64,000 nt of DNA from a virus (lineage: Duplodnaviria; Caudoviricetes): the IMG/VR virus record IMGVR_UViG_3300034126_000020, positions 96,001 to 160,000 of that record, one strand, 5' to 3'. Shown one piece after another: positions 33,965 to 35,065 of this stretch (position 1 is its first letter; every line of letters begins with the position of its first letter). The notes under the pieces are model-generated. The model saw only the letters and a list, made by a program, of their open reading frames with translations, had not been told where the DNA came from and searched no databases. Position numbers and translations under genes: made by a program.

Positions 33965-34038
33965 TGGGGTGAACGGGGGAATCGAACCCTCGTGCGACGA
34001 TTCACAGTCGTCTGCCTTACCACTCGGCCACGCACACC
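33965..34038 (-). tRNA. trnH: tRNA-His(GUG), slightly irregular stems
   Basis: GACGA-CTGTGAA-TCGTC anticodon arm, TTCGATT loop, CCA end. Confidence 0.85.
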
Positions 34039-34114
34039 ACAAATTGAATCAACCAGCGGGACGGCGTCCGCCTACACCCTGCGCGCCGCGCAGGAATGCC
34101 ACTGATTGAAAGGG

Positions 34115-34229
34115 TCGTCCTAGGGAGACTCGAACTCCCGACCTCTGCCGCGTTGTTAAGCCCCTGATTCCCCCGCTGAGGAGGGAGGGGCTTGAAAGGC
34201 AGCGCTCTAACCGACTGAGCTACAGGACT
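34115..34229 (-). tRNA. tRNA-like gene with a 41-nt extra hairpin in the anticodon loop
   Basis: canonical D-arm (GCTC/GAGC), CTGCC/GGCAG stem, AGGTC variable loop and GGGAG-TTCGAGT-CTCCC T-arm, but a 48-nt loop. Confidence 0.8.
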
Positions 34230-34233
34230 AAAA

Positions 34234-34309
34234 TGGCTCCACGACCTGGACTCGAACCAGGGACACTACGGTTAACAGCCGTATGCTCTACCAACTGAGC
34301 TATCGCGGA
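34234..34309 (-). tRNA. trnN: tRNA-Asn(GUU)
   Basis: full cloverleaf, CTGTTAA loop, G73-CCA. Confidence 0.97.
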
Positions 34310-34310
34310 A

Positions 34311-34410
34311 TGGCGTTCACTGCTGGGCTGTACCCAGACCCCCTGAGCGACCTACCCTTGTCCGGTTGACCCGCAGGCGACCGAGGATAAGCTGCCAATG
34401 GGCAGTGAAC
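34311..34410 (-). ncRNA. CCA-ended non-canonical tRNA-like RNA
   Basis: 8-bp GTTCACTG/CAGTGAAC stem plus G-CCA; adjacent CTGGG-TACAG-CCCAG arm. Confidence 0.6.
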
Positions 34411-34414
34411 GGTT

Positions 34415-34537
34415 TATCAACATCTTCAAGTAGATTTCACCTTGCCTACGCCGGTTGTTACTTTCTACTCGCTGACCCGAAGGTTGACTCCCTGCATCCA
34501 GGCTCACGCTTTAACTGGATACTTGAAGATGTCGACA
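34415..34537 (-). ncRNA. structured small RNA closed by an 18-bp stem
   Basis: TGTCGACATCTTCAAGTA pairs with TACTTGAAGATGTTGATA; internal GTGA and cTTCGg tetraloops. Confidence 0.6.
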
Positions 34538-34539
34538 AC

Positions 34540-34614
34540 TGGAAGAGGTATCTGGGATCGAACCAGAGAATGATGGGATCAAAGCCCATTGCCTTACCGC
34601 TTGGCTATACCTCT
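34540..34614 (-). tRNA. trnQ: tRNA-Gln(UUG)
   Basis: ATGGG-CTTTGAT-CCCAT arm, GCCAAGCGGTAAGGC D-arm, CCA. Confidence 0.93.
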
Positions 34615-34619
34615 AAATG

Positions 34620-34696
34620 TGGCGGCTCCAAGGGGACTTGAACCCCTGACCCCCGGCGTGACAGGCCGGTGCTCTAACCAACTGAGCTATGGAACC
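34620..34696 (-). tRNA. trnD: tRNA-Asp(GUC)
   Basis: full cloverleaf, CTGTCAC loop, G73-CCA. Confidence 0.97.
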
Positions 34697-34869
34697 TATG
34701 ACAGCTACCATCCCGCCGCGCTGCGGCCCGTCTACACTGCCAGCACCACGATCTTATTCAGACCGCTGCTGAGAATTGAGGTTGGGACCCGACGTGCGGC
34801 AATCCCGTCCTACGACGATTCATGGGAGGTACAACTCTGCATCCCACCGCCAAGGCAGTGGGCAATAAA

Positions 34870-34957
34870 TGGTGGAGAGAGAAGGATTTGAACCTTCGAA
34901 GTGCGATCGCACGTCAGATTTACAGTCTGATTCCTTTAACCGCTCGGAAACCTCTCC
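34870..34957 (-). tRNA. trnY: tRNA-Tyr(GUA)
   Basis: CTGTAAA loop, long variable arm, A73-CCA. Confidence 0.97.
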
Positions 34958-34965
34958 GGATAGGG

Positions 34966-35065
34966 TGGAAAGGCCGGCGCCCAAAGCCGCAAGTGGCACG
35001 AATGCCGATCCCTTCGCTGCTCAAAGGCTGCACGGATCACGGCGGCGGAGGCGCCGGCCTTTCCA
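34966..35065 (-). ncRNA. structured small RNA closed by a perfect 16-bp stem
   Basis: TGGAAAGGCCGGCGCC inverted repeat enclosing nested helices. Confidence 0.55.

Follow-up and report, generated by a model that had tools for sequence, protein, structure and literature searches.

The window analysed here, a 64,000-nucleotide (nt) stretch of phage DNA, covers bases 96001-160000 of an IMG/VR phage genome that is complete (276.8 kb) and has terminal repeats. The window contains a transfer RNA (tRNA) array in which six tRNA-type genes alternate with folded RNAs on the minus strand (approximately 35133-33842). On balance, we read this array as an RNA operon, polycistronic and belonging to a jumbo phage of the nucleus type, in which the tRNAs would serve as punctuation, the RNAs released between them would be selected, and mimics would act on host proteins. 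The parts of this reading carry different weight. Judged from the sequences compared below, the non-tRNA modules are very probably real selected RNAs; they would quite probably be released as discrete stable RNAs, and a role as decoys or in counter-defence is proposed only tentatively.

The order in the direction of transcription is a putative TATG promoter of phiKZ type, the leader folds L1 and L2, tRNA-Tyr, the spacer S1, tRNA-Asp, tRNA-Gln, a long-stem RNA, a tRNA-like RNA ending in NCCA (hereafter the NCCA RNA), tRNA-Asn, an insertion-bearing tRNA-shaped RNA, a three-way-junction RNA, tRNA-His and a terminator-like fold (Table 1). Analysis with ARAGORN and Rfam and a check of the spacing bore out the order and coordinates of the original prediction, as well as its remark that the non-tRNA stretches abut the tRNAs: the gaps to neighbouring tRNAs are 1-11 nt, and the window thus holds non-tRNA RNAs inside a phage tRNA cluster and adjoining its tRNAs. 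The unit is larger than the extent proposed earlier (33965-35065), with the putative promoter and L1 (35133-35068) upstream and a further fold (33955-33842) downstream. The five standard tRNAs make up the complete GUN-anticodon (queuosine-family) set of Tyr, His, Asn and Asp, plus Gln. Rfam gave a sixth tRNA match (34229-34115, 52.4 bits), whose anticodon loop contains an insertion of 43 nt, and all six matches sit in the array, none being found elsewhere in the 276.8-kb genome.

Relatives were gathered through the 280-residue protein encoded beside the operon, which has 16 homologues at 51-85% identity. The contigs of these homologues, together with two IMG/VR genomes, supplied 12 additional arrays (those named below carry labels such as L008), making 13 with that of the window. 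The nearest cultured relative, Pseudomonas aeruginosa phage pPa_SNUABM_DT01 (hereafter DT01; 76% nucleotide identity, baseplate and RNA-polymerase genes), comes in addition to these.

Single-sequence folds were compared with 200 dinucleotide shuffles. Four of the six non-tRNA stretches beat every or nearly every shuffle, namely the long-stem RNA (z -4.7), L2 (z -4.2), the NCCA RNA (z -3.3) and the three-way junction (z -2.6). For these four, the earlier description of the non-tRNA stretches as self-contained folds stands; for S1 it gains no such support. Covariation was tested in four modules with two controls, and the score was reached by 0 of 500 shuffles in each, whereas sliding the partner by 1-3 columns left a pairing of only 28-50%. 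L2 showed 13 pairs altered on both sides with 89% of alignment cells paired (13 sequences including DT01), the NCCA RNA seven compensatory pairs, two of them in the acceptor-like stem, with 99% of cells paired (10 arrays), the insertion-bearing tRNA five with 96% (eight sequences) and the three-way junction three with 99% (eight sequences). The original prediction had staked itself on stems that persist in relatives, and in these four modules the stems are conserved and covary across the 12 related arrays.

The NCCA RNA, present in 10 arrays, is a three-way tRNA-like minihelix in which the canonical T loop and D arm are absent. An invariant hairpin of 5-6 base pairs (bp), CUGGGUAYAGCCCAG, is stacked at the position of the T arm, the central arm is of variable length, and L017 and L018 have a minimal form of 60 nt. 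The insertion-bearing tRNA, found in eight arrays, belongs to the Rfam tRNA family (RF00005) at 52.4 bits against a gathering threshold of 29 (model positions 1-71, cloverleaf), with canonical D and T arms, a 6-bp acceptor stem and the 3' end ACCC. Its covariation lies in the anticodon stem, the T stem and the inserted hairpin, the last of which varies in sequence between genomes with its pairing kept. What a functional decoder should have is missing, in that the loop is 48 nt long, the triplet varies, positions 1:72 are unpaired and ARAGORN makes no standard call; we read it as a tRNA mimic with the expected L-shape of a tRNA. The three-way junction follows it directly in 8/8 arrays, and the two occur jointly in eight of the nine arrays extending that far, never apart.

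The remaining modules are more varied. Leader fold L1 has compensatory changes in 4 of 13 pairs (11 arrays), for example GAAGAGCCU/AGGCUUC versus AGUGCCC/GGGCACU. The trailing fold is kept in L008 and partly in L019, and its inner hairpin covaries; it is probably an operon terminator or a 3' protective structure. At the Tyr-Asp site, relatives hold a module other than S1, 65 nt long and cloverleaf-like, in which 5 of 19 pairs are compensatory (seven sequences), and S1 itself has no match in the 12 relatives, in GenBank phages or elsewhere in its own genome. The long-stem RNA is present in 6 of the 13 arrays and missing from L009 and L013 as a clean indel; one inner hairpin exchanges a UUCG loop for GAAA with the stem kept.

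The folds had been put forward as unrecognised, and they are so for Rfam as well: scans of the window, its sub-regions and six relatives at the gathering threshold and at E<=10 gave nothing besides tRNA and noise-level matches, with none to the long-stem RNA at E<=10 and none to the three-way junction. In blastn searches, no spacer had a meaningful match among GenBank phages, and pattern scans of IMG/VR and metagenomes with the conserved cores returned the same clade only, plus three chance matches in coding sequence. For L2, the NCCA RNA and the three-way junction, covariance models had no match in phage phiKZ or in the P. syringae jumbo phage D6; in DT01 only the L2 model had one, and DT01 belonged to the training set of that model.

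Among the 13 arrays the modules are present, absent or reordered, and each is single-copy within its genome. They behave as exchangeable cassettes rather than repeats, since they shift position between genomes yet stay single-copy; repeats resembling miniature inverted-repeat transposable elements were rejected, as no further copies of any module occur elsewhere in the genome. Tyr and Asp, like L1 and L2, are present in all or nearly all arrays and Asn in every array reaching that far, and the gains and losses of tRNAs concern His, Gln, Ile and Ser. Two cassette families are absent from the window. One (L008:6291-6524, 234 nt, and L013:4836-5069) has a 10-bp closing stem with a compensatory change, and the other (L009:6634-6830, 197 nt, and L019:6238-6381) differs in position between its two genomes. 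Both families, approximately 200-230 nt in length, carry canonical T arms (GCGGGTTCGAGTCCCGC and GCGGTTCGATCCCGC) and, much like rnaC of phage T4, have the look of RNAs that derive from tRNA and contain large insertions.

Smaller differences were also seen in the relatives. In L016, an additional tRNA-Ile(GAT) and a 55-residue open reading frame lie between Tyr and Asp (L016:5200-5466), and because the frame was inserted there, small open reading frames can be array cassettes too. A conserved element of ~43 nt precedes a longer form of tRNA-Gln (L008:6480-6524, L013, L016:5544-5586 and L019:5294-5336), and its hairpin shows a compensatory change (GGGAG-UGAC-GUCCC versus GGGCG-UGAC-UGCCC). After the junction, where the window has tRNA-His, L009 has two degenerate tRNA-like stretches (L009:7016-7170) with intact D arms and broken acceptor or anticodon regions; neither stretch is called by ARAGORN or Rfam. 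A gene for a 149-residue protein with a staphylococcal-nuclease domain (PF00565) comes directly after the junction in the two most reduced arrays (L017:5608-6057 and L018:5674-6123).

The sequence TATGTGAAG at the head of the operon is invariant in 13/13 arrays, DT01 and D6 also have it ahead of their tRNA regions, and AAAAATACA precedes it at about -17 to -28, upstream in every relative. Late promoters of phiKZ consist of TATG with the G as +1, and its middle promoters carry AAanTTACc near -24 (PMC4666361). By analogy, TATGTGAAG and the upstream AAAAATACA fit the phiKZ promoter rules, with G35133 as the putative transcription start. Two hairpins separate the TATG motif from the upstream gene. 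One, a conserved CGTGTA-AAAAAA-TACACG (35149-35166, minus strand), shares bases with the putative middle-promoter motif and may be an operator or a promoter element; the other (35195-35220, minus strand) is GC-rich and terminator-like, with a U-run.

Table 1. Features of the tRNA array and its flanks, listed in the direction of transcription (positions in the window)
Feature	Position	Strand	Characteristics
Putative promoter for the phage RNA polymerase	35133-35166	minus	AAAAAATACA at about -17 to -28; TATG at 35136-35133, G being the predicted start
Leader fold L1, ~66 nt	35068-35133	minus	stem made by the first transcribed bases; covariation
Leader RNA L2, 100 nt	34966-35065	minus	17-bp closing stem, branched interior, invariant GCAGCCUUUGAGCA loop
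tRNA-Tyr (GTA)	34870-34957	minus	ARAGORN, Rfam
S1, 173-nt Tyr-Asp spacer	34697-34869	minus	unique to the window genome
tRNA-Asp (GTC)	34620-34696	minus	ARAGORN, Rfam
tRNA-Gln (TTG)	34540-34614	minus	ARAGORN, Rfam
Long-stem RNA, 125 nt	34414-34538	minus	~24-bp closing stem, branched interior, conserved purine strand AGUAGAAAGUAACA
NCCA-ended tRNA-like RNA, 100 nt	34311-34410	minus	8-bp acceptor-like stem, G+CCA end, 1 nt before tRNA-Asn
Type I-F CRISPR-repeat-like start of the NCCA RNA	34388-34410	minus	GTTCACTGCC-CATT-GGCAGCTTA
tRNA-Asn (GTT)	34234-34309	minus	ARAGORN, Rfam
Insertion-bearing tRNA-shaped RNA	34112-34229	minus	Rfam tRNA, 52.4 bits; ~41-nt hairpin in anticodon loop
Three-way-junction RNA, 61 nt	34049-34109	minus	P1 11 bp, P2 7-10 bp, P3 3 bp with GGAC/GGAU loop
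tRNA-His (GTG)	33966-34038	minus	ARAGORN, Rfam; in 3/13 arrays
Trailing closed fold, 114 nt	33842-33955	minus	12-bp closing stem, then GUCUUUUAUUU (U-run)

Outside the window, the phage encodes a homologue of gp54 of phiKZ (C1:164774-166312, minus strand; 23% identity over 535 residues, E 8e-13). Because gp54 is the protein of the nuclear shell, the phage probably builds a nucleus-like compartment. Several of its relatives come from compost metagenomes, and P. fluorescens SBW25 serves as host to a DT01-like jumbo phage from compost (bioRxiv 10.1101/2024.08.29.610337). From these relatives and from DT01, we infer that the host is a Pseudomonas. The gene directly upstream of the operon (35235-36077, minus strand) encodes the 280-residue protein mentioned above, which has a crAss001_48-like domain (PF21825, E 2e-6) and is found clade-wide; three genes further upstream lies a gene for a Macro-domain protein (37562-38023, minus strand).

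We propose the following scheme for the operon. The RNA polymerase of the phage would start the transcript at the TATG promoter, and host ribonuclease P (RNase P), acting at the 5' ends of the tRNAs, would cut it together with 3' trimming enzymes into discrete pieces, which are to be expected because each fold adjoins a tRNA by 1-11 nt. The tRNAs would be the punctuation between terminally closed folded RNAs, with selection acting on the RNA structure of each module. Of the kinds of module, at least three (the hairpin-blocked tRNA, the NCCA minihelix and the 200-230-nt T-arm modules of the relatives) would be tRNA mimics rather than decoders and would occupy those proteins of the host by which tRNA-shaped RNA is bound or cut. 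The true tRNAs (Tyr, His, Asn, Asp and Gln) would keep translation supplied, and L1, L2 and the trailing fold would protect the ends of the transcript. If the gp54 homologue is a shell protein, the DNA would be shielded and cytoplasmic translation would thus be the exposed target; the make-up of the tRNAs, exactly the GUN set plus Gln, and the probably shielded DNA may fit a contest over translation. The tRNA mimicry, the complete GUN set and a weak resemblance to type I-F repeats (see below) indirectly favour counter-defence, and the array may be a cassette for counter-defence or translation control, as had been suggested at the outset.

Several observations weigh against a set of selected, trans-acting RNAs. 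All of the relatives collected are close (51-85% identity of the flanking protein), and the covariation therefore represents few independent events. S1 (z -1.4) and the trailing fold (z only -1.2) do not fold better than shuffles. The long-stem RNA is nearly invariant in sequence and has no compensatory pairs across the arrays, which leaves two of the six spacers, S1 and the long-stem RNA, without comparative support. The discriminator and CCA of the NCCA RNA are found in most genomes, but the CCA is absent in L017 and L018 and damaged in L008. Finally, conservation of structure would equally be expected of purely cis-acting elements for processing or insulation.

This last point leads to a serious rival explanation, although we consider it rather unlikely: the folds would act only in cis, as insulators of the tRNAs, as guides or blocks for RNase E, RNase P or RNase III, or as end-protective hairpins, and would be discarded after processing. 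Every module is closed by a stem that joins its own two ends, a design shared by the array of phage D6, and protective structures would be expected at the sites that L1 and L2 (5' end) and the trailing fold (3' end) occupy. L2, present in one copy per genome, stands ahead of the first tRNA whatever its identity (Tyr in the window, Asn in DT01). However, insulation needs only a stem, and the invariant sequences GCAGCCUUUGAGCA in L2, CUGGGUAYAGCCCAG and CCCAWUGG in the NCCA RNA and GGUGUA in the junction are left unexplained by it. Moreover, many tRNA pairs in the arrays adjoin at 4-8 nt with no spacer module as insulator between them, and the modules are optional between close relatives.

A further alternative concerns the NCCA RNA alone and appears unlikely to us. 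It would be an RNA anti-CRISPR (CRISPR, the clustered and regularly interspaced short palindromic repeats), a solitary repeat unit of the Racr type whose first 23 nt mimic the hairpin of a type I-F repeat, bind Cas6f/Csy4 and divert the Csy proteins from the CRISPR RNAs of the host. RNA anti-CRISPRs that mimic I-F repeats exist and require the C6-G20 pair (PMC10651486), and this pair, essential for Cas6f binding, is retained in the start of the NCCA RNA. The start, GTTCACTGCC-CATT-GGCAGCTTA, agrees with the consensus of CRISPR-DR4 (RF01317), GUUCACUGCC[5]GGCAGCUUAGAAA, at 19 of 23 non-loop positions. In the literature, the sequence given for type I-F repeats in Pseudomonas and enterobacteria is GTTCACTGCC-5 nt-GGCAGCT(A/T)AGAAA, with which the P. 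aeruginosa repeats agree, and relatives of the window phage infect Pseudomonas. In a structure-aware version, the repeat-like pattern has a single occurrence in the window and none in 100 shuffles, and 0 of the 120 chance matches listed for its 15-base core in bacterial genomes carry the flanking G and TTA.

Against this, CRISPR-DR4 is the top Rfam match of the region with only 14.1 bits, the gathering threshold being 35 (E 1.8 in a 116-nt search), and this is the level of noise, at which unrelated matches on neighbouring modules score alike; a generic local alignment of the repeat-like start is not significant either, its score being reached by shuffled genomes. The start also departs from the family itself, as its loop is one base short (4 nt, not 5) and the last four bases of the 28-nt repeat are absent, the GAAA part of the handle being missing. 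Among relatives, the hairpin is intact in 6 of 10, L009 and L013 lack A19 (one mismatch), and L017 and L018 have lost the hairpin; for positions 2 and 8 of the repeat, the covariation is instead with the NCCA RNA's 3' end. The 120 bacterial matches listed are single chance matches, with no array of I-F-like repeats with a 4-nt loop among them. In addition, the phage encodes a gp54 homologue, and nucleus-forming phages should already be resistant to DNA-targeting CRISPR. Two other candidates were rejected: a second hairpin of the CUG...CAG kind as a Cas6f mimic, such hairpins occurring 146 times in the genome against approximately 90 in shuffles, and two further CACTGCC...GGCAG sites, one in a relative and one in DT01, which have no repeat-like flanks.

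A bolder version of the scheme would make the whole array an island of RNA decoys, in which tRNA punctuation mass-produces mimics that disarm cytoplasmic defences, including a tRNA-scaffolded I-F anti-CRISPR, and in which the hairpin-blocked tRNA and the junction trap an anticodon nuclease or another tRNA-binding effector. We regard this as improbable; if true, it would be a first in two respects, as an RNA anti-CRISPR whose delivery relies on tRNA processing and as an RNA operon for counter-defence with several targets.

For the insertion-bearing tRNA, the alternative is a real decoder: most relatives would have a tRNA-Glu(UUC) and the window an opal suppressor (UCA), the hairpin being an intron at position 37/38 removed by host enzymes. 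The intron mode of ARAGORN indeed calls Glu(ttc) with an intron of 35-39 nt in five relatives, tca with a 41-nt intron in the window and other triplets in two, the body is canonical with covarying anticodon and T stems, and the UCA triplet of the window and the UUA triplet of L016 are nonsense-suppressor anticodons. Nevertheless, we think it very unlikely. The triplet differs among close relatives (UUC, UCA, UUA and AUC), which disfavours decoding, positions 1:72 are purine-purine in 8/8 (A-G, G-G or G-A), and the 3' end is ACCC. Inspection showed no bulge-helix-bulge (pairing between the 5' loop strand and the 3' strand is found at only 2-3 of 4 positions), and for a group I intron, usually >200 nt, Rfam gave no match at E<=10 and the ~41-nt insertion is far too short. 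The phage genome is without a splicing endonuclease (PF01974), RtcB and an Rnl2-type ligase (PF09414), and a search of it for Rnl1 (PF09511), which had no positive control, found nothing; because these enzymes were not found in the phage, the inserted hairpin probably stays. A phage-encoded CCA-adding enzyme was likewise not found in the genome. As to opal recoding, TGA-split frames were not in excess when the genome was crudely compared with a UUC-type relative (52 versus 64 split pairs), and the mix of stop codons was similar.

The least credible explanation is that the spacers are decaying tRNA genes or neutral debris of a fast-turnover array, for although the arrays gain and lose tRNAs, L009 has its two degenerate stretches and several modules contain tRNA-like pieces, helices are kept by compensatory substitutions in five modules (the junction, the NCCA RNA, the 65-nt module, L2 and the insertion-bearing tRNA), invariant loops persist in genomes whose flanking proteins are only 51-85% identical, and no spacer module scores as a tRNA even at E<=10.

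Returning to the reading as an operon of selected RNAs, its modular gain and loss, explicit tRNA mimicry and cultured or culturable relatives make an old question about phage tRNA clusters directly testable in this clade. If the mimics are decoys, translation-level and RNA-level defences would be the main battleground for phages whose DNA is shielded by a nucleus, and further outcomes would be new families for Rfam and possibly novel RNA tools.

Among known systems, a comparable array in a jumbo phage is that of D6 (OQ363659.1, 2380-3600, minus strand), in which His, Asp, Tyr, Pro, a 'tRNA-OTHER', Asn and Asn lie behind TATATGTGG. Its spacers are 117-200 nt long, at least one of them is closed by an 11-bp terminal stem, and the 'tRNA-OTHER' has a 13-nt anticodon loop. 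The solitary repeat units of viruses (Racr/RacrIF1; PMC10651486) resemble the NCCA RNA in having a solitary I-F repeat-like hairpin with C6-G20, in being a probably highly expressed non-coding unit and in the I-F-rich host genus. The NCCA RNA differs from them in scoring far below the CRISPR-DR4 threshold, in its 4-nt loop, in lying inside a tRNA-like fold that covaries and is in competition with the hairpin, and in not being conserved across the clade; its likeness is at family level, to the I-F consensus, and no acr genes were recognised near the array.

The YrlA/Y RNAs, mascRNA and the tRNA-microRNA units of MHV68 likewise combine a module resembling an acceptor or T arm with a probable RNase P-dependent release. 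The best scores of the arrays with the YrlA model (RF02553) are 21.7-27.1 bits, far from the gathering threshold of 69, and no Ro/Rsr (TROVE) domain is encoded in the phage genome. The bacterial group I and archaeal bulge-helix-bulge introns of tRNAs share with the insertion-bearing tRNA an insertion at or next to position 37/38, but here the insertion is ~41 nt long, Rfam finds no intron, no bulge-helix-bulge was seen and no splicing enzymes were found.

The standard tRNAs call to mind another kind of system. Phage tRNA sets replace host tRNAs cut by anticodon nucleases, as T5 tRNAs do against PARIS and retron Eco7, and colicin E5 cuts the set of Tyr, His, Asn and Asp tRNAs. The array, with its four GUN-anticodon tRNAs and Gln, is similar, and nearly every relative has Tyr, Asp and Asn. 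This likeness concerns the tRNAs and not the spacer RNAs, and codon supply could also explain it.

The precedent named in the original prediction, the species 1/2 RNAs of T4, holds. These RNAs, rnaC and rnaD, are non-tRNA RNAs of 139 and 119 nt in the tRNA cluster, adjoining a tRNA or each other at 1-6 nt, like the modules of the window; we know of no function established for them. T4 rnaC folds well (z -4.6) and is tRNA-derived, since a canonical T arm, CCGGGUUCGAAUCCCGG, stands next to its 3' end. Unlike the two RNAs of T4, the modules of the window clade form at least six families, are interleaved rather than terminal, are shuffled among relatives and belong to a phiKZ-type phage with its own polymerase; the comparison covers architecture only. 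Stable non-tRNA RNAs in phage tRNA clusters have thus been known since T4 species 1/2, and the clade adds at least six families with comparative support: the kind of arrangement is already known, and these RNA families are new.

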